IMG/VR virus record: IMGVR_UViG_3300027861_000018
Location: 1 to 64,000 of that record
Reading direction: 5' to 3' (one strand)
DNA length: 64,000 nucleotides
Origin: a virus
A program made the translations under genes and the position numbers. Shown here in pieces: positions 3,581 to 25,166 of this stretch (within the stretch, counting starts at the first letter, position 1; every line of letters starts with the position of its first letter). A model generated the notes under the pieces. The model did not search any database, had not been told where the DNA came from, and was given only the letters and a program-made list of their open reading frames with translations.

Positions 3581-4230
3581 GAGCACGCATCACACACATA
3601 CTTGTCGCCTGATGCCCGATAAGCAATGGCGCCAACCGTCGTCAGGTCGGCGTCGCACGTGGCGCAAAGCTCAGGGGAGGGGCCGAAGACGCCAGCGCCG
3701 GTGCCCTTGATGTTATCCGCCTTCCAGTCGCGCTTTGCAACGATGCCATCCCACACAGCCGCCAGCGTGAGCCCTGCTGTCGTTCCCAAGCTCAGCGCCA
3801 TCAGCTCCATTGCCCCGATGACGCCACCAAGGCTCGCCACCTCGGCCGCAGCGTGATCTTCATCTGCGCGTATGCCTTGAGCCGCCTTTAGCCGGGCGTG
3901 AGCCAAGCGCCCCAGCGACGATACGCCCAGGCGCAACGCGCTGGCCTCTAGTTGGGCAGGGGATGGCGTGAGCATGTTGACGCACAGCTTCGCTTCAGCC
4001 ACGCTTGAGCGACCGATCACGCTTGCGTCCAGCGACAGGATGGAAGCGTGGTGGATGGCGTAGATGAGGACATCGCCAACCGCATCCGCCTTGTCGGCCG
4101 AGGTCTTGGCAGATGCCAACTCGCCCAATTCCTCCACCATTCCCTGAAGCGTCTGGTCAGCTGTGGTGTCAGGGAAATTGTGTGCCGCCCATATGCGGTG
4201 TTCAGTTTGGACGCGCTTGAAAGAGATCAC
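3577..4230 (-). CDS. MazG-like NTP pyrophosphohydrolase with C-terminal Zn ribbon
   Basis: GMVEELGELA...DAVGDVLIY (EExxE...D MazG motif); CATC...CDAC at the C-terminus. Confidence 0.8.
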   Translation of the reverse strand: MISFKRVQTEHRIWAAHNFPDTTADQTLQGMVEELGELASAKTSADKADAVGDVLIYAIHHASILSLDASVIGRSSVAEAKLCVNMLTPSPAQLEASALRLGVSSLGRLAHARLKAAQGIRADEDHAAAEVASLGGVIGAMELMALSLGTTAGLTLAAVWDGIVAKRDWKADNIKGTGAGVFGPSPELCATCDADLTTVGAIAYRASGDKYVCDACS

Positions 4231-4248
4231 GGCTCACTCCTTGATGAC

Positions 4249-4563
4249 CTATGCTTCCCAGCCAGGGAGCCAAAGCGCCCCTTGCCCGGGTTTGAAGATA
4301 TGGGATTGCCCCGAACAGAGCAAAGTGGACTTTGTCGGCAGGTCCTTTATCCCTACGCGATCACTGCCCTGCCACACGAGCAACCACCCATTGGGCGGCA
4401 CAACGCACTCAGATGAGTCCTTGCCCTCAAGGAGGGGTCCGACCGGGTGTGCCTTTATCTCACAGCCCATCAGGTGAGCCATGACAGCGCAGTCTGTCTT
4501 TGGAACATCCTCTTCATCCGTGTACCAACATTCCAACGGCAGTATGATGACAGGCAGTGACAT
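4249..4563 (-). CDS. hypothetical protein
   Basis: 104-aa ORF filling the gap between genes. Confidence 0.5.
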   Translation of the reverse strand: MSLPVIILPLECWYTDEEDVPKTDCAVMAHLMGCEIKAHPVGPLLEGKDSSECVVPPNGWLLVWQGSDRVGIKDLPTKSTLLCSGQSHIFKPGQGALWLPGWEA

Positions 4564-4566
4564 ATT

Positions 4567-4575
4567 ACCCTACAG
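4567..4575 (-). promoter_or_regulatory. class B motif CTGTAGRGT (putative promoter element)
   Basis: Exact copy of a 9-mer that recurs at gene junctions (see findings). Confidence 0.5.
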
Positions 4576-4610
4576 ATGACGGGGCGCCGTGCGACCCTGG
4601 CTGAACCTAA

Positions 4611-4811
4611 CTAGCAGAAACGGACTGAATCGCCGTCGCCGGAATAGGTGATTGCTGCGCCCGCGTTGCTCATGGTGTCGCCGAGGCGCAGCACTGAGCG
4701 CCTTGACTTGTCTTGGGTCGTGACCTTGTTGCCCTGGATGCGGCCACCGGCAAGATGGGCGATGGCCCGGGCCGCAGCCCGCGCTTGGCGTCGATAGTCT
4801 CGAATGCTCAT
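4611..4811 (-). CDS. small basic hypothetical protein
   Basis: GGAG SD; directly downstream of a class A promoter. Confidence 0.6.
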   Translation of the reverse strand: MSIRDYRRQARAAARAIAHLAGGRIQGNKVTTQDKSRRSVLRLGDTMSNAGAAITYSGDGDSVRFC

Positions 4812-4839
4812 GGTGTGCTCCAGGGCTTGTCTGTCAGCT

Positions 4840-4884
4840 AGCTTAACTGTATCGGCCGCTCTAGTCTACAGACTTTTTGCTTTT
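4840..4884 (-). promoter_or_regulatory. class A sigma70-like promoter (A-tract, TAGACT-17-TAAGCT)
   Basis: -35 at 4863-4868, -10 at 4840-4845, 17-nt spacer, upstream A-tracts; same layout at three other sites. Confidence 0.55.
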
Positions 4885-4971
4885 ATCCAAGGAAATTGGG
4901 AGCAGTGAGGGCTGTGATCACAAAAAATGCCCCGCCAAGGTGACCCTTGACAGGGTGGCGCCACTCCATGA

Positions 4972-5400
4972 CTAGCTTTTGAGCCCGCCCAAGGAGCCCG
5001 ACACAACGCCGGTCAAGAATGCCGCGCCCAATGCGCTCAGCACAATGCCCAACTTGGTAAACCAAGCCCGCACAGCCCGCCTGCCGCCAATCTCGTCACG
5101 CTCCATCGCTGTGAGGATGGCGTGACTGGTCCGGGCATCAGCCACGTCCAGTTGGCTGATCTTGCCATCAGCCAATTGGCTGATCTGGACCAAGGCAATG
5201 TGCAGCCCCTCTGGGCCGTGCTGCTGTACAGCCTGTGCCGCAACGTCCAATGCCAATGCCTGCCACGTATTGGTGGCTTCACCGGCCAACTCTCGCAACT
5301 CAGCTGCAGCTCTCTCGGCAGCAGGGTCCTCCATCTGGTGCAGAGCTGCCAGGAGCAGTGTCAATGCCGCAGGTGGCGGTGCGTCGTCAGGCATGCTCAT
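4972..5400 (-). CDS. hypothetical protein with C-terminal transmembrane helix
   Basis: Ends LGIVLSALGAAFLTGVVSGSLGG; ATGA-coupled to the upstream gene. Confidence 0.7.
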   Translation of the reverse strand: MSMPDDAPPPAALTLLLAALHQMEDPAAERAAAELRELAGEATNTWQALALDVAAQAVQQHGPEGLHIALVQISQLADGKISQLDVADARTSHAILTAMERDEIGGRRAVRAWFTKLGIVLSALGAAFLTGVVSGSLGGLKS

Positions 5401-6158
5401 TCCTCCTCAAGAGTGTCTGATGGTTCGACCGTGACAGCCGGTATATCAGACACTACAGCTTCAGGCTCCGCTTCAGGACAAAGCGTGGTGGCGGCAGGGA
5501 TGGGGGCAGGGTCCCCAGGGTCTGCCCCGAGGTCTGCGAGGTGGAGCATCATCGCATAGCGCCAGGCGGTGGCGTGTTGGCCGATGAGCAACTGCTCGGC
5601 ATACACCAGACAGCCTTCATGATCATCAGCGGCGGTCGCTGTGTCCATGGCTCGTTGGAATGCGGCGATGCTCTCTTGATTGCGCGCCTCCAACCAGGCC
5701 ACCTGATTGGAGTAGACAGTCGCATCACGCAAGACCAGCTGCTTCATGCAGCCACCACCGAACGCGCTGGCGGCGATGGCAAACAGCGCGATGAGGGTGG
5801 TGGTCGTGGGCGCCTTGGCCTTTGGCTGAGGCGCTGGGGCAGGCTCGGCAGGTGGTGGCTGGGCGGGTTGGACGAGCTTTAACAGCTCTCGCATCTGGCT
5901 GTGACCGAAGACAGCCATGGCGCCAGCGGCCAAACCTTCCATCGCCACAGACCACTGGAAAGCGTCATCAATCACAAGGGTGCCGTCGAAAGCCGCCAAC
6001 GCTGCCTGGCTGCCCGTGGCGAGCAGAACCGCCACCATCGGTAGCGCGATGCGCAGCTTGGGCTTGTCCACTAGGTTGACGAAGTAGCCGACCACGCTGG
6101 TCAACGCCCAAGTGAGCAAGACCACGATTGGGTCAGTAACGTCAAGGGGAATGTCCAT
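5397..6158 (-). CDS. membrane protein: holin-like N-terminus, Pro linker, internal lipobox-like segment
   Basis: About three hydrophobic helices, then PAQPPPAEPAPAP, then LIALFAIAASAFGGG-C; GGAGG SD. Confidence 0.6.
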   Translation of the reverse strand: MDIPLDVTDPIVVLLTWALTSVVGYFVNLVDKPKLRIALPMVAVLLATGSQAALAAFDGTLVIDDAFQWSVAMEGLAAGAMAVFGHSQMRELLKLVQPAQPPPAEPAPAPQPKAKAPTTTTLIALFAIAASAFGGGCMKQLVLRDATVYSNQVAWLEARNQESIAAFQRAMDTATAADDHEGCLVYAEQLLIGQHATAWRYAMMLHLADLGADPGDPAPIPAATTLCPEAEPEAVVSDIPAVTVEPSDTLEEE

Positions 6159-6248
6159 GAGACCTCCGGTGTCTGCGCTGTTTGGTGCGCAGTCCGTCCA
6201 TCGAAATCATAGCCCCTCTCACATCCAAAGTCGAGGGCGCAACCTCAT

Positions 6249-6671
6249 TCAGGCGCTGCGCCCATACACTCTGTCCAGGAGGCGCTTGCGCTCTGCTGCC
6301 CTCACTGCGGGCACGAGGGTGTCAGCGGTGTCTCGCATCAGGGTCGCTACAATGCGGACAACGGCGGCTGAATCCCTTTCTCCGCCATCATCCTGCACGC
6401 GATCAATCCATGTGTCACGGATGTGACAGAGGGCGATGGTCCGCACGTCACTGGCGCCCATCATCCCCTGACGCACAATGCTCCCAAGTTGGGCATTGAT
6501 CCAGGCATAGCCAGGAGCGCCATGGATGTCTCCATCCGGCACAGCAGTTAATGCCGCTTCATTCTCCAGCTGACTAGCTGATATGCGCAGGAAGGTGCGC
6601 AGCTCTGCTACGTCAGCCTGAATCTGATTGGACAGCTTTGCCGCCAATGCGTCCACGTATCTCATGGTCAT
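6249..6671 (-). CDS. hypothetical protein
   Basis: ATGA overlap; GGAG SD. Confidence 0.6.
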   Translation of the reverse strand: MTMRYVDALAAKLSNQIQADVAELRTFLRISASQLENEAALTAVPDGDIHGAPGYAWINAQLGSIVRQGMMGASDVRTIALCHIRDTWIDRVQDDGGERDSAAVVRIVATLMRDTADTLVPAVRAAERKRLLDRVYGRSA

Positions 6672-19878: not shown

Positions 19879-22800
19879 TCAGATGGTTGTGGAAGTTACC
19901 TCTATGACGCCATCATCGCCTAGCATGACAGTCTTCCTGTCCTTTTTGAGATCAACGCGGATTGTGCATCCAACCTTGAGCCTTGGCCCCCAATCAGCAT
20001 AGCTGTCAGGAAACACAACGACCTCCAAGCAGGAGTGGTCTGCTAACTCCAGCGTGATGAAGGCCATGTCTTGACCGGTCTTTTTGGTAATGATGTGCTT
20101 GTGACTAATCACCAAGCCGCAAGCAACAAAGGAGCGTCGGCGCTGCCAAGCCTTCCCCCTCGTCACATCCCCCTTCTTGGCGGCCCGAAATGCAGGGTGG
20201 CTGGGGGTCAAGCATTTCTCCCAACCGTCCCATGCCAATCCGTGGCGCCCCTTATTGCGCATGGTCTCCAGGTCCACCACATACAGAGCGCGGCATGCCT
20301 TTACCCCCCTCCACGTCAGCAATCGCATCGCCATGGAGGTGCCAATGCCTTGGTCTAGAATCCACCTGAACTCAGGGAAATTGTCCTGGTGGACCTTCAC
20401 GCGAACCTGATTGCCGTGGATGTCTTCGATGTTCACATTGGCATAGCGCTTGCCCCAACCCATCCTGGCCTTGGTGGCGGCATCAGGCTCCACCGTGTCA
20501 AAGTCACCCACCTGATTGTACTTGATGTCAATCATGGTGCCGGCGATGAGCGGCATGGACGGCCCTGCCCACACCTCCTCAATAGGCGTGAAGCGACACC
20601 CAGAGAGGGCGCTGGTCATGAGATTGGCATAGACGGCCATGGGATGCTTCCCGCCACCAAGGGGCGACACCTCGCCTGCTAGATACAGCAGGTCCTCTTC
20701 ATCATAGTCAGGCTCGCCATCCCAATCGGCAATCAACTCGCGCAGGGCGTCCTCCCATCCTGCTTTCTGCTTGCGGCCGATGTCCAACCAACTGCCCTTC
20801 TCCTTGATTGTCTCCAGCGCGATGCGCGTGTTGGGCAAGAGCTTCCGCATGGCGCCTGACTTGATCATCGCCCCCAAGGCGCGACTGTTGACGGCACGCC
20901 CGGCGATGCGCGCGAAGAAGTCTGGCATATCTGTGAACGGCTGGGCCTTCTGGATGGCTGTCGTAGCTGTCTCACCAACATACTTGATGTCAGTGAGATT
21001 GGAGACGATGTGGCCGTCGCCATTGATGGCGAAGCCGACACCGCTGACATTGATGTCTGGCGGCTGTACCTCGACGCCCAGGCGTTGAGCCTCTTTGGAA
21101 TAGCGGGCAATCTGCTCGCGTTTGGGCTCGTTCTGCATCAGCGCCCACATCAGCTCGGCCGGGTGGTGAACCTTCATCCACATCTGCCAATAACCAATGA
21201 TGGCATAGGCGGCTGAGTGACTCTTGTTGAATCCATAGGAGTTATGTGAGATAATGCCGGATTCACTCAAGATGTATGTGGCCGGTGCTGCGCCCATCTC
21301 AATGTCATAGGTAGCCTGGAATCCTATGTCTTCAATCGAGACAACGCGGCGGCAGTCAAGCGTTCTTCCGCGTGCTCCTCCCTGTGGCAGCGATGGCACA
21401 ATGCTTCCAGATTCTCCAAGGAGTGGTCCTGAATCCTGTTCTTGTGATGGACGTGCAGGCCCTTCAGGGCGGGGTGGGGGCTGCTCGCATCCGCCTGGGC
21501 GCCGCACCTCTCGCATACGTTGTTGGCGCGCGCCAACGCCGCTGCCCTCGCAGCCTTCCGCGCCATTGACCTTCCGTCGATGTATCCCGGATTCAATGCC
21601 CCGGTCATCTTCTTGGACTGCGCCGCGATGGATTTGTCCGTGCCCTTGGTCAAGCCAGCCTTCCAGCCCCTGCCCTTGCCGGCATGCGGACCGTAGGACC
21701 CCACTGGGCGCCCTTCCTCGCGACGCAACGCCCTGTACTGACGCTGGTAGCAACGATTGCACAACCCGCGGCAGAATGCCTGCCGCTCCTGGCACGTCGA
21801 ACACATCTGTTCTGTCGACATCCTCATGCCCCTCTGCTTCTGGCTCAATTACCATAGCTGTCGAAGAGCAAATCAGCGACCCTTCAACCAGCTCCCGCGC
21901 CTCCAGCCATCCTGTTGGCGTAGCCCAGTGATGGCCCAGTGAGCAGGCAAAGGAGGACCCGTCATCCAAGGTGATCTTGATGCACGTCTTGACGCCAGTG
22001 GGCTCCACCACCTTGATCGCATTCACCACCTCACCCTGCGGCGTCCATGACACCAGTTCTTGGCCATTGACCAGGGAATCGATGCGTTGAGAACCATGCC
22101 TGGTCTTGATTAACGTTTCCCCAGTTAGGCAGCCGAAAAAGGTGATGTCACTTATGATCTTCTCTGCCACATCGGCAGGCACGCCGCGCTCGACCGCACC
22201 GGCCACGAACTTTTCACGCTCACGCTTCAGAGTCTCATCGCCAATCTTTTTGGCGATGACCTTTCGCAAGGAGTCGGCCGTGCCTGGCGCGTATCCCGCC
22301 ATCTGTACAAATATCTTGGTGACCTGCTCTTGATACACCAGCACACCCAGTGAGTCAGAACAGATGGAATCATACAGGGGATGGACTTGCCTCTCATCAC
22401 GACGTTTGGGGTTCAGCTTCCTCTTTTTGAACTCCGTCGCCAGCCCCGACCGCGCTGGCCCTGGCCTGTTGAGAGCCACCATCGCCACATTGTCTTCGAA
22501 GCTATCAAAGGCGATGCCCTCACAAGCTGCATGTGCGCCAGTGGAATCATATTGGAAGATGCCAACATAATGGTGATCTGTGAATGCCTGAAGCGTCTCT
22601 GGGTTATCGAGCGGCAGCAGCTCATAGTCCAGCTTGAGCCCAGGATTGCGCTTCTCTGCCATCTTGCGCGCGTCATTGAGCACGGTCAGGGTTCGAAGGC
22701 CCAAGATGTCGAGCTTGAGCAAGCCCATGCCGCCAACGCCGTACATGTCCCACGCCGCCAACTTGACGATCAGGTTGTTGCGCATGTGCGTTTCGATTGG

Positions 22801-24567
22801 CACCACATCCGGGAGCGGGACAGGCGAGGTGATGACGCCGGCTGCATGCACGCCCGGCTGCCTGGCGTGGCCCTCCAGCTTCACCACCAGCGGCAAGACG
22901 TGCGGGTGGCGTGCATTGAAGTCGCGACACACTTTGAATTCCACAAAGCTGTCTGCCACAGTCTGGCTCGCACGCTCATCACCGCTGGACCGCTCAACAA
23001 TGGCGCCCGTCACATCATTGAGCTCTCCAAACGGCACACCAAGCACGCGCCCCACATCCTTCAGCGCGCTCTTGCCCTTCATGCGGCCCACTGTACAGAT
23101 GAGACTCACCTTGTCTCTGCCCCACTTCTCATGCAAGTAGGTGATGACCTCCTCACGCCGCACATCCTCAAAATCCATATCGATATCAGGCATATCGATA
23201 CGCTCAGGGCTGATGAAGCGTTCGAACAGCAAACCATGCTCAAGTGGATCCAGAGAGGTGATGCCTAGCAAGTAACACACCAGCGAGCCAGCTGCAGAAC
23301 CGCGCCCCGGGCCTGTCATGATTGGCGGCTCTGCCATATCACGGCACCAGTTGATGAGGTCGCGAACAATCAGAAAGTACCCAGGGAACTTTGCGCAGGC
23401 AATCGGCTCCTTTCCTGCCTTGCGCAGTTCCACGTCCAATTCCTTGTCCAATCGTGCCCTGTACTCTGCGACTGAATATCCTGTGACCTTGGAGCGCCCC
23501 TCGATGTCGCGCCAATCCCACCCTTCAGCGCAGAGACGGGACAGCTCTGCCACATCATCGCTGGAATCATGAGGCACTTGCGGCACCAATGCCTTGAAGC
23601 GGTCGATGTGCATCTTGTAGGTGTGTGCATCAGAGACCTCCACCGTGGCTTCAATGACCTCTGCGGCCAATTCCTCACCCATGTATGGGTGATTGGCCAA
23701 GAACGCTTCCATCATCTCAGCACCGCTGCGCAAGTGGTAGCCCTGCGGCGACCGCGGGTGATCAGGCTCCTCCATCGTCATCTTGTTCGCCAGGCACAGC
23801 AAGATGGTGTGGGCATCGGTGTCGTCAGCATTGATGTAGTGAACGTCATTGACAGCAATGAGAGGCAAGCCCAATGCCCTAGCGATGCGGATGAATGCCT
23901 TGTTGACTCTGCGGTGGAGCGGTCCGGCGTGCGGCATTAGCTCCAGATACATGCGGCCCTTGTAGGCGGCAGCCAGCTTCTTGGCGGTGCGGGCGGCTTG
24001 GGCCATCCGGCCCTGGATGACGTGATCGCCCAACAGGGAATCGGGGCCGCCAAAGCTGATGGACAGCCCCTCGTTGTGCTCGATGAGGAGCTCAACGTCA
24101 ACGCGGGGGATGCCTCGATAGCAACCTCCATCATTGTCCCAGGCGATGGACGTGAGGCGCGACAGCGACCTGAAGCCGTTGCCCTCCATCACCCTCGCCG
24201 TCACATCCCACGAGCGCATCACCTGCTTGCGTGCCTCCTCTGCTCGGATGACTTTTTGGCGCTCCCGGCCTTCCAGCCCAAGTGCAACGATATCCTCGTC
24301 ATCCTTGGTCAATCCGTGCTGACGATGGTTGGTCACGACATTGAGCACTGCGCCATAGATGGGGCGTGGCTGCTCCTCGCCGTCAGGCGTGTGCACATAG
24401 GCTGCCTTCTGAAGGTCGTATGCATATCTCAAGGTTGAGGTGTCGGTGACGCACAGCGTGCGCATCCCTAACTCTCTGCCTCGATTCACATGGGCCCCAA
24501 GCTGCCCAAATGCCTGCAGATAACTATACTCTGTGCGGCGGCGCAACTCTTCATATCGCAACGTCAT
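19879..24567 (-). CDS. dnaE: DNA polymerase III alpha subunit (family C), intein-containing
   Basis: GPGRGSAAGSLVCYLLGIT, FERFISPERIDMPDIDMDF, HAAGV, KLDILGL, YQEQV, YGFNKSHSAAY, PPDIN; ATGA-coupled start at 24567. Confidence 0.97.
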   Translation of the reverse strand: MTLRYEELRRRTEYSYLQAFGQLGAHVNRGRELGMRTLCVTDTSTLRYAYDLQKAAYVHTPDGEEQPRPIYGAVLNVVTNHRQHGLTKDDEDIVALGLEGRERQKVIRAEEARKQVMRSWDVTARVMEGNGFRSLSRLTSIAWDNDGGCYRGIPRVDVELLIEHNEGLSISFGGPDSLLGDHVIQGRMAQAARTAKKLAAAYKGRMYLELMPHAGPLHRRVNKAFIRIARALGLPLIAVNDVHYINADDTDAHTILLCLANKMTMEEPDHPRSPQGYHLRSGAEMMEAFLANHPYMGEELAAEVIEATVEVSDAHTYKMHIDRFKALVPQVPHDSSDDVAELSRLCAEGWDWRDIEGRSKVTGYSVAEYRARLDKELDVELRKAGKEPIACAKFPGYFLIVRDLINWCRDMAEPPIMTGPGRGSAAGSLVCYLLGITSLDPLEHGLLFERFISPERIDMPDIDMDFEDVRREEVITYLHEKWGRDKVSLICTVGRMKGKSALKDVGRVLGVPFGELNDVTGAIVERSSGDERASQTVADSFVEFKVCRDFNARHPHVLPLVVKLEGHARQPGVHAAGVITSPVPLPDVVPIETHMRNNLIVKLAAWDMYGVGGMGLLKLDILGLRTLTVLNDARKMAEKRNPGLKLDYELLPLDNPETLQAFTDHHYVGIFQYDSTGAHAACEGIAFDSFEDNVAMVALNRPGPARSGLATEFKKRKLNPKRRDERQVHPLYDSICSDSLGVLVYQEQVTKIFVQMAGYAPGTADSLRKVIAKKIGDETLKREREKFVAGAVERGVPADVAEKIISDITFFGCLTGETLIKTRHGSQRIDSLVNGQELVSWTPQGEVVNAIKVVEPTGVKTCIKITLDDGSSFACSLGHHWATPTGWLEARELVEGSLICSSTAMVIEPEAEGHEDVDRTDVFDVPGAAGILPRVVQSLLPASVQGVASRGRAPSGVLRSACRQGQGLEGWLDQGHGQIHRGAVQEDDRGIESGIHRRKVNGAEGCEGSGVGARQQRMREVRRPGGCEQPPPRPEGPARPSQEQDSGPLLGESGSIVPSLPQGGARGRTLDCRRVVSIEDIGFQATYDIEMGAAPATYILSESGIISHNSYGFNKSHSAAYAIIGYWQMWMKVHHPAELMWALMQNEPKREQIARYSKEAQRLGVEVQPPDINVSGVGFAINGDGHIVSNLTDIKYVGETATTAIQKAQPFTDMPDFFARIAGRAVNSRALGAMIKSGAMRKLLPNTRIALETIKEKGSWLDIGRKQKAGWEDALRELIADWDGEPDYDEEDLLYLAGEVSPLGGGKHPMAVYANLMTSALSGCRFTPIEEVWAGPSMPLIAGTMIDIKYNQVGDFDTVEPDAATKARMGWGKRYANVNIEDIHGNQVRVKVHQDNFPEFRWILDQGIGTSMAMRLLTWRGVKACRALYVVDLETMRNKGRHGLAWDGWEKCLTPSHPAFRAAKKGDVTRGKAWQRRRSFVACGLVISHKHIITKKTGQDMAFITLELADHSCLEVVVFPDSYADWGPRLKVGCTIRVDLKKDRKTVMLGDDGVIEVTSTTI
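21241..22131 (-). mobile_element. intein (297 aa) in DnaE
   Basis: FFG|CLTGETLI (block A), CSLGHHW (block B), TYDIEM (block F), ISHN|S (block G plus Ser+1); removing it restores FFG-SYGFNKSH. Confidence 0.93.
21324..21821 (-). CDS. HNH homing endonuclease encoded out of frame inside the intein
   Basis: Frame shifted by 1 nt from dnaE; CSTC..CRGLCNRCY, NUMOD3-like WKAGLTK...GALNPGYIDG, CERC...LHVHHKNRIQDHSLENLEALCHRCHREEH; GAGGGG 7 nt before ATG 21821. Confidence 0.85.
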   Translation of the reverse strand: MSTEQMCSTCQERQAFCRGLCNRCYQRQYRALRREEGRPVGSYGPHAGKGRGWKAGLTKGTDKSIAAQSKKMTGALNPGYIDGRSMARKAARAAALARANNVCERCGAQADASSPHPALKGLHVHHKNRIQDHSLENLEALCHRCHREEHAEERLTAAALSRLKT

Positions 24568-25166
24568 GCTTGCTCTCCTGCAAGGCCAAGCCAATCGACA
24601 ACTGCCGCTTCGACGGCCGACCCTATGTGCTTCTCACCATCCCAGTAAGGAACCTGGCTCACGTCCAATCGCAAGGTAGGCAGAGCTGATGCTAGGCGCA
24701 CTGCGGTGTTGAGCCTGGACCGTACCCCAGACAATCGCTCCGGATGCCGTCTGGTGTCATCTGGCGGCAGGCGTGCCATCAAATTCTCAACCGGGGCATC
24801 CAGGTGAACGATGCGGGCGTCAAGCGGGCGCAGAGTTGACGCCCACCACCTCACCAGCGCAGCGTGGGCCAGCGGCCCTTCAGGAGCATAGGCCACGCCT
24901 GATGGCATCGACCTGTCCAGGAACAACCTGGACGACCAGGCCAAGCCAGCGTTGTGATGAAGGCACGCCAGCACATCGGCCGCATACACGTCATCCACAT
25001 AGGTGTTCACAGGCACGCCGCGCTCTCGCCACTCTGCCAGTTGATCCTGCGACAAGCGCCCATCCCTCCACGCCATCGCGCGATATGGCAGGAAGTCATA
25101 GCGCGCGAGTGACTCAGACAGGGTCGTCTTGCCGACACCTTCTGGGCCTTCCAGAACGAGAATCAC
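24564..25166 (-). CDS. dNMP (thymidylate-kinase-like) kinase
   Basis: ILVLEGPEGVGKTT, LFLDRSMPSGVAY, IVHLDAP. Confidence 0.85.
   Translation of the reverse strand: MILVLEGPEGVGKTTLSESLARYDFLPYRAMAWRDGRLSQDQLAEWRERGVPVNTYVDDVYAADVLACLHHNAGLAWSSRLFLDRSMPSGVAYAPEGPLAHAALVRWWASTLRPLDARIVHLDAPVENLMARLPPDDTRRHPERLSGVRSRLNTAVRLASALPTLRLDVSQVPYWDGEKHIGSAVEAAVVDWLGLAGEQA

Follow-up and report, generated by a model that had tools for sequence, protein, structure and literature searches.

An HNH endonuclease gene nested out of frame in a dnaE intein of uncultured environmental phages

Background

Inteins in which an endonuclease gene occupies a reading frame other than that of the host gene have been described for other nucleases. 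In a cyanobacterial dnaX intein, a LAGLIDADG gene lies in the +2 frame, accompanied by the same selection pattern as reported below, by Shine-Dalgarno (SD) motifs and by mini-intein alleles (bioRxiv 10.64898/2026.09.14.751524). Inteins of actinobacteriophages harbor an endonuclease VII-like gene in frame 3, HNH nucleases being reported in that account in frame only (bioRxiv 10.1101/2025.01.02.630785). Both papers credit Gorbalenya 1998 for the two-frame layout. Here we describe an intein in the DnaE-type polymerase gene of a metagenomic phage, in which an HNH gene is nested one base out of frame. The window, i.e., the whole stretch of DNA analyzed, comprises positions 1 to 64,000 (64,000 nucleotides) of the 86,268-base IMG/VR virus record IMGVR_UViG_3300027861_000018; a preliminary description of it had been drawn up from its letters alone.

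As far as the dnaX and actinobacteriophage reports go, the dnaE intein resembles their two-frame inteins in several respects. The nuclease open reading frame (ORF) is located between the splicing blocks, on the same strand as the host gene but in another frame, and the host frame runs through it uninterrupted with a junk-like reading. Purifying selection in the nuclease frame, a raised ratio of nonsynonymous to synonymous substitution rates (dN/dS) in the host frame, SD-like motifs and coexisting mini-intein alleles are likewise shared, as is the proposed origin by invasion of a mini-intein by a free-standing gene. In contrast to the reported cases, the nuclease is of the HNH type, the offset is +1, the intein resides in the dnaE gene of environmental phages that have not been cultured, and the nuclease gene occurs in two loops within one intein family (in loci L039 and L124 versus the rest). 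Since two-frame inteins have been published for other nucleases, the novelty implied by the preliminary description was overstated. An out-of-frame HNH gene inside an intein, or a dnaE intein of this kind, was not found in the literature, supplementary intein tables being outside the scope.

Out-of-frame HNH insertions of the ShiLan type are reported from phage C5 DNA methylases (Genes 2025, PMC11855218), which bears out the methylase precedent named in the preliminary description. In the published insertions, and likewise in the window, a host ORF without stops conceals, in a different frame, an HNH gene flanked by zinc-finger parts. However, no splicing domain is present in the ShiLan type, so that the junk stays in the methylase, whereas the intein blocks flanking the insert in dnaE would make it removable after translation.

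In fractured genes, split inteins flank a free-standing endonuclease gene, with gp41-1 and three dnaE loci among the examples (Dassa et al. 2009, PMC2677866); gp41-1 is also the closest solved structure to the intein described here. According to that report, a free-standing-type nuclease gene with start signals of its own is found at the endonuclease position of the intein and extends at its 3' end into the downstream coding DNA of the intein, both as in the window. The fractured host genes, in contrast, consist of two ORFs and carry a split intein, with nucleases of the GIY-YIG or Vsr-like type, whereas the dnaE ORF is continuous and its intein contiguous. Canonical inteins with an HNH nuclease in frame (Dalgaard 1997, cited by bioRxiv 10.1101/2025.01.02.630785), such as that of the phage CL131 dCTP deaminase (PMC6293099), also carry the HNH between the splicing blocks, and the in-frame HNH of dnaE inteins is detectably related to that of the window; as reported, they form a single polypeptide, while the HNH of the window has its own start, stop and frame.

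Results and discussion

Layout of the locus and its recurrence

The dnaE gene of the window is an uninterrupted minus-strand ORF of 1571 codons (19879-24594) that codes for a DnaE-type polymerase (Pfam: PHP, DNA_pol3_alpha, finger, HHH_6); it is the only dnaE copy in the 86-kb record. At the site FFG/SYGFNKSH (slashes mark insertion points), its reading frame includes an intein, the central part of which, read with a shift of one base, encodes a complete HNH protein (Table 1). An HNH homologue nested at +1 within a dnaE intein at FFG/SYGFNK was found in eight non-identical loci, namely the window, L002, L003 (identical to L036), L035, L037, L038, L039 and L123. These loci come from different samples and have G+C contents (GC) of 0.37-0.58, and all insert lengths are multiples of 3. 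The preliminary description had proposed a 297-residue intein with Cys1, a block B His, and His-Asn followed by Ser+1, a junk-like center that is stop-free in the DnaE frame, and a 165-residue HNH gene at 21324-21821, shifted by 1 nt, with its own SD, ATG and stop. All of these features are present.

Table 1. Positions of the dnaE gene parts, the intein and the nested HNH gene (window numbering unless a locus is named)
Feature	Position	Strand	Characteristics and evidence
dnaE N-extein	22132..24594	-	PHP, polymerase core, fingers; ends ...DITFFG; ORF list, Pfam, alignment to intein-less relatives
Whole intein, DnaE residues 822-1118, 297 aa	21241-22131	-	Site FFG/SYGFNKSH; Cys first, His-Asn last, Ser next
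Intein N-terminal splicing region, intein residues 1-90	21862..22131	-	Cys1; block B Ser-x-x-His
Stretch missing from mini-intein relative, 170 codons	21352..21861	-	Contains the bulk of the HNH gene together with its 5' leader
Intein C-terminal splicing region, blocks F and G, ...ISHN	21241..21351	-	Invariant residues; NCBIfam intein_Cterm matches
dnaE C-extein	19879..21240	-	Ser+1 first (SYGFNKSH...); HhH and OB regions
HNH homing-endonuclease gene (putative function), 165 aa + TAG	21324..21821	-	+1 frame relative to dnaE; Pfam HNH; homologues; purifying selection
TAA stop in HNH frame, upstream of HNH leader	21849..21851	-	Bars read-in from upstream in the HNH frame
Shine-Dalgarno-like AGAGGGG	21829..21835	-	7 nt ahead of ATG at 21821
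N-terminal Cys cluster CxxC...CxxxCxxC	21750..21803	-	Probable zinc ribbon
HNH catalytic core CxxC ... HVHH ... N ... CxxCH	21366..21515	-	Pfam match to residues 103-152
SD-hairpin stretches at other loci	L035:4959-5021, L037:4932-4994, L038:1486-1548, L002:1455-1517		

The intein

The Cys1 codon of the window intein is located at 22129-22131. In all seven aligned inteins of the family, C1, T6, G13 and H67 as well as D276, P283, Y286, H296 and N297 are invariant, and block B shows Ser or Thr three residues ahead of His67; Ser+1 opens the C-extein motif SYGFNK at every locus. The N-terminal part of the window intein matched the solved gp41-1 intein 6riz (phmmer, E = 1.4e-5). A profile of the seven family inteins matched 22 PDB sequences, with gp41-1 as the best match (2.7e-13). 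Of these, 21 are inteins or proteins that host one, the remaining sequence being a bacterial intein-like (HINT) domain; the C-terminal blocks were also matched, albeit weakly, as a second stretch on the gp41-1 chain 6qaz. NCBIfam intein_Cterm matches three of the seven family members. The insertion site is marked by DnaE relatives with an insert-free junction FFG-SYGFNKSH (P0005-P0009 and L115-L119); P0005-P0009, with 62-82% identity, are the closest DnaE relatives in the protein collection among the matches listed, and seven of the at least 120 matches listed were aligned. We take the site to lie two residues upstream of the cyanobacterial split-DnaE site. Judged by Cys1, block B, the terminal His-Asn with Ser+1, sequence homology to solved inteins and the precise site, the insert has the features of a class-1 intein and is predicted to be one.

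The 170 middle codons contain no stop in the DnaE frame. Their translation is hydrophilic and junk-like (Kyte-Doolittle mean -0.67), and no PDB chain matched it. The hydrophilicity of the linker relative to the expectation from the HNH codons ranged from z = -3.0 to +1.4 over the eight loci, an inconsistent signal that is confounded with the avoidance of T-initial codons. Over its full span, the intein has 15 stops in the third frame and 7 in the +1 frame, none of the latter within the HNH ORF.

The HNH gene in the +1 frame

In the +1 frame, no stop intervenes between a TAA at 21849-21851 and the TAG at 21324-21326, and the last 28 nt of the HNH gene are shared with the DNA of the C-terminal splicing region of the intein. 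The 165-residue product scored 29.1 bits against Pfam HNH (PF01844; cut-off 21.4), a cut-off exceeded by all eight family members, and it matched PHROG HNH families down to E = 5e-12. Residues C112, C115, H132, H134, H135, N146, C151, C154 and H155 (P0002 numbering) are invariant in the family, the profile of which matches PDB chains of McrA, IscB and phage HNH. Of the composite domain structure proposed in the preliminary description (Zn-finger/NUMOD3-like/HNH), the HNH part was thus recovered, while none of 10 nested nucleases scanned matched the Pfam family NUMOD3 at E <= 1. A G..NP.W motif is conserved among the nested HNH proteins; we assume that it resembles NUMOD3. The N-terminal Cys cluster, matched weakly by Pfam DZR_2 (E = 0.38), is probably a zinc ribbon; its core RG.C..(C/H)Y aligns in seven of seven members, with three of eight columns identical in all.

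For codon positions 1, 2 and 3, GC within the overlap is 0.56, 0.52 and 0.80 in the HNH frame and 0.79, 0.56 and 0.52 in the dnaE frame, as compared to 0.61, 0.46 and 0.68 in the long ORFs of the window. The HNH frame therefore shows a coding-like periodicity (0.80 versus 0.52 at the third position). An SD-like motif and a start codon are situated just ahead of the Cys cluster in all eight loci, the motif of L003 being the weakest, and in six of the eight an HNH-frame stop occurs 0-9 codons upstream of the start. On the minus strand between 21200 and 22300, neither a sigma-70-like promoter nor a terminator was found.

At four of the eight loci (Table 1), the SD of the nested gene is paired in a hairpin with an upstream complement (z = -1.5 to -3.4). 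They recall the upstream hairpins that are reported to sequester the ribosome-binding site (RBS) of endonuclease genes of the free-standing kind (Dassa et al. 2009, PMC2677866).

Searches for homologues

An exhaustive HMMER search yielded two full-length HNH homologues, P0123 (51% identity, E = 6.5e-41), which is the nested ORF of L035, and P0124. Scans with HNH alignments retrieved L002 and L003 from viral contigs; from metagenomes they gave 80 loci, the five best of which, L035-L039, each have the HNH nested in dnaE. Most of the weaker HNH relatives lack such nesting (72 of the 80 metagenome loci were not flagged). The identities of the full-length HNH homologues are 41-55%. Locus L123 was added when an intein-less DnaE served as the query.

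Viral contigs yielded no relatives to a single-protein query, whether HNH or intein; alignment queries alone succeeded. A word-index search with the HNH protein returned nothing at E <= 0.001, and blastn and tblastn searches against 50,697 phage records gave no match. In 185,579 species genomes, only distant HNH matches were found (identity at most 38%, except over stretches no longer than about 50 residues), many of them in Patescibacteria; a dnaE-nested HNH was not recognized in these genomes, L134-L164 not having been put through the nesting check.

Selection on the two reading frames

A codon alignment of the HNH core was made for seven loci, i.e., the family without L123. The mean ratio of nonsynonymous to synonymous differences per site (pN/pS), used as a rough proxy, was 0.43 in the HNH frame versus 1.25 in the DnaE frame, with the HNH frame giving the lower value in all 21 pairs. 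Amino acid identity was 0.50 in the HNH frame versus 0.26 in the DnaE frame. Nucleotide differences at HNH codon positions 1, 2 and 3 amounted to 0.43, 0.36 and 0.62, with the peak at position 3.

The synonymous codons of each HNH gene were redrawn with the codon usage of the host gene in 20000 trials. Of the 20000 trials per locus, 49, 12, 0, 0, 20, 0 and 0 left the DnaE frame open at the seven aligned loci, and none did so at L123; 5-21 stops per locus were expected under resampling. Two runs with host codon usage left the DnaE frame of the window open in 35/20000 and 49/20000 trials, and permutation of the HNH gene's own codons left it open in 135/20000 and 130/20000. Ahead of a codon beginning with AA, AG or GA, none of 366 HNH codons ends in T, as against 211 of 767 elsewhere (Fisher p = 3e-41; seven loci). 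The third frame contains 5-18 stops across the loci. The HNH frame is under protein-level constraint and the intein frame under stop-avoidance alone, which is the outcome that the preliminary description had set beforehand for a codon-level test.

Origin and distribution

The DnaE protein P0004 (40% identical) contains a homologous mini-intein of 138 residues at the same site, with about 11 residues where the window intein has about 170 extra codons. In L039, on a 105-kb contig, the intein extends from 4955 to 5833 and the HNH ORF, still at +1, from 4998 to 5480. This ORF begins 28-43 nt (about 10 codons) into the intein, with only a short linker at the usual position between blocks B and F, and the dnaE frame was open in 0 of 20000 resamplings. 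The arrangement of L039 suggests a second independent HNH insertion or a move within the intein. Because of the mini-intein at the same site in P0004 and the position of the L039 HNH in a different loop, the sequences support the proposal of the preliminary description that an HNH gene invaded a mini-intein. Pairwise identities within the family are 39-62% for the HNH proteins and 39-61% for the exteins; judging from these sequences, intein and HNH gene form an old association with repeated loss or spread rather than the product of a recent transfer.

On a dnaE tree of 26 rows, the window groups with six intein-less relatives in well-supported clades; the sister of this group is L035, the intein-bearing gene nearest to the window on the tree. 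Intein presence requires at least 6 changes on 24 rows; L122 and L130, without a recognizable site motif, were not counted for these changes. The row of P0004 was without 236 extein residues (374 instead of 138 were cut). L120 (ORF coordinates equal to those of L116), L125 (contig of L003) and L128 (identical to L124) were left off the tree, and L131-L133, partial matches of 24-25%, were dropped. The patchy distribution of the element on the dnaE tree may be taken as indirect support for a homing-endonuclease function.

Interpretation and alternative explanations

The locus is, in our judgment, very probably a composite selfish element, consisting of a class-1, gp41-1-like intein and a free-standing-type HNH gene between blocks B and F, one base off dnaE. 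From the sequences we infer protein splicing, separate translation of the HNH gene, and homing. Ribosomes translating dnaE would read the HNH gene as a hydrophilic linker of 170 residues, and the flanking HINT domain would splice the whole intein out, restoring DnaE. Ribosomes initiating internally, at the HNH gene's own SD and the ATG at 21821, would produce the HNH protein separately. In co-infections, the nuclease would cut intein-less or HNH-less dnaE alleles, and repair would copy the element in. Because of this mechanism, the nuclease sequence would be kept in one frame, while stops are merely forbidden in the other.

A number of observations weigh against this interpretation. With respect to the intein, Pfam recognized no family in the window intein, and NCBIfam intein_Nterm scored 20.6 bits, below its cut-off of 24.5. 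With respect to the nested gene, pN/pS is no more than a rough proxy, synonymous sites being near saturation (synonymous differences per site, pS, 0.70-1.09); the structure of the SD region of the window (z = -1.06) was not significant, 28 of 200 shuffles being equally good. The intein does not depend on the HNH, as is evident from the mini-intein allele P0004. Homing is not favored by the similar divergence of HNH and extein, which therefore gives no sign of recent homing, and the dnaE tree does not separate gains from precise losses. A search of public runs found no RNA run containing the stretch. One public run contains it, a seawater metagenome that is probably the source run; its Logan assembly is identical over 20900-22500 with 0 gaps and is not independent evidence, because it probably derives from the same reads as the window.

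Part of these observations would fit a relic, i.e., an ancient HNH invasion that is now unexpressed or inactive, leaving a mini-intein with a long tolerated linker in which the ORF has simply not yet decayed. The absence of an RNA run among those searched, the lack of a close locus pair indicative of recent homing, the P0004 allele that manages without HNH, and the modest, unstructured SD of the window all agree with such a state. We nevertheless regard it as improbable. The HNH ORF is intact in all eight loci despite the range of extein identities, pN/pS is lower in its frame in every pair, the catalytic His and Asn residues and all four zinc Cys are invariant, and the Pfam HNH cut-off is exceeded throughout the family. 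In a relic, stops would have accumulated in the HNH frame, as they have in the third frame.

Recoding, by which ribosomes would shift by +1 into the HNH frame and back again, making the HNH an in-frame domain of the intein, is a highly improbable alternative to the nested, separately translated gene. It would draw on the location of both frames on the same strand and the same mRNA, and on the report that one or two indels could bring the ORFs of actinobacteriophage inteins into frame (bioRxiv 10.1101/2025.01.02.630785). However, two efficient shifts would be required. The window for entry is 0-9 codons in six of eight loci, where an SD-like motif and a start codon are found and no shared slippery site, and the strict avoidance of stops over the whole overlap implies that the DnaE frame is read throughout.

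An artefact is hardly conceivable. The objection, anticipated in the preliminary description, is that two compensating assembly indels have shifted an ordinary in-frame HNH intein; the window is indeed a metagenome assembly with a word depth of about 10x, compared against contigs, and in-frame HNH inteins do exist in dnaE at the neighboring site FNK/SH (P0189, P0156, P0245). This explanation fails because the same +1 layout is repeated in seven further non-identical contigs from different samples. Besides, an HNH-frame stop closely precedes the start in most loci, the HNH gene's own stop lies inside the DNA of block F, a second assembler produced the identical sequence, and an unread DnaE frame would have no need to avoid stops.

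Removal at the RNA level, likewise considered in the preliminary description, carries next to no weight: although group I introns with HNH ORFs are reported from phage polymerase genes, a search of 20800-22600 against Rfam at E <= 1 gave no intron family (the sole match being a chance snoRNA, E = 0.86), the flanking intein blocks are homologous to solved inteins, and the host frame is held open by selection, which an intron would not need. The Rfam result and the open, selected host frame led us to reject an endonuclease-bearing intron of group I or II. A fractured gene with a split intein was rejected on account of the single continuous dnaE ORF of 1571 codons, and a ShiLan-type insertion, which has no splicing domain, on account of the intein blocks flanking the insert.

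Related inteins and nested HNH genes

The dnaE gene of L038 (1248-2063 and the next 171 codons) contains two inteins six residues apart. The first is the intein at FFG/SYGFNK with the +1 HNH, and the second is a mini-intein of 171 residues at FNK/C...HN/SH. Three DnaE-type proteins, P0189, P0156 and P0245, have in-frame HNH inteins at FNK/C...HN/SH, six residues downstream of the window site, and their HNH domains are related to the window HNH (39% identity over 82 residues, E = 9e-7; hhalign probability 94.9%). In L126, an insert of 286 residues was found between SYGFNK and SH; the pattern match gives Thr as its first residue instead of Cys or Ser, and the boundary may be misplaced.

L124 (identical to L128) carries a dnaE intein at the same site (3931-4917) with a nested ORF at +1 (4001-4564) that starts about 70 nt into the intein. 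The 187-residue product is a different nuclease with two HNH_3 repeats (Pfam E = 2.2e-19), and the host frame was open in 7 of 20000 resamplings. A terminase large-subunit ORF of L009 (4665-7403) contains an intein (Pfam Intein_splicing, E = 1.5e-12), which also holds a +1 HNH ORF (5806-6270); its host frame was open in 0 of 20000 resamplings. The two-frame layout is therefore not confined to dnaE.

In L005-L007, L010-L015, L019, L031-L033 and L069, longer ORFs enclose further HNH ORFs of 112-215 codons at +1. The hosts were C5 DNA methylases (PF00145) in four of four cases tested, the remainder having been judged by eye or left unexamined; by sequence, these loci look like the published ShiLan-type insertions.

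With regard to the position of the nested gene, the HNH lies between blocks B and F in the window, L002, L003, L035, L037 and L038, whereas it follows just after the first strand in L039; that of L123 is unplaced. The unrelated double-HNH gene of L124 occupies the same early loop as the HNH of L039. Because related HNH genes occur in two loops of one intein family and are akin to the in-frame HNH at FNK/SH, we tentatively raise the possibility, with the balance rather against it, that the HNH gene is a mobile element in its own right, a parasite of the intein rather than of dnaE. If so, the family would record a route from a free-standing gene to an overprinted gene and on to an in-frame domain or a split intein, and the target of the nuclease might be the HNH-less mini-intein allele.

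Conclusions

The general layout of a nuclease gene overprinted on an intein was published in 2025-2026 and, according to those papers, proposed in 1998. The present family provides a clean and statistically strong case of two-frame coding, in which a protein sequence is selected in one frame and the absence of stops in the other. Since gene callers give only the long dnaE ORF and Pfam is blind to the intein, both the intein and the nuclease gene go unannotated, as the preliminary description had anticipated. The view that the splicing domain came first and the endonuclease invaded later becomes testable, because HNH-bearing and mini-intein alleles are available in this family and split relatives are in print. 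Inteins of the gp41-1 type are popular tools in protein engineering, and a relative that tolerates an unstructured insert of 170 residues may be of interest to that field.

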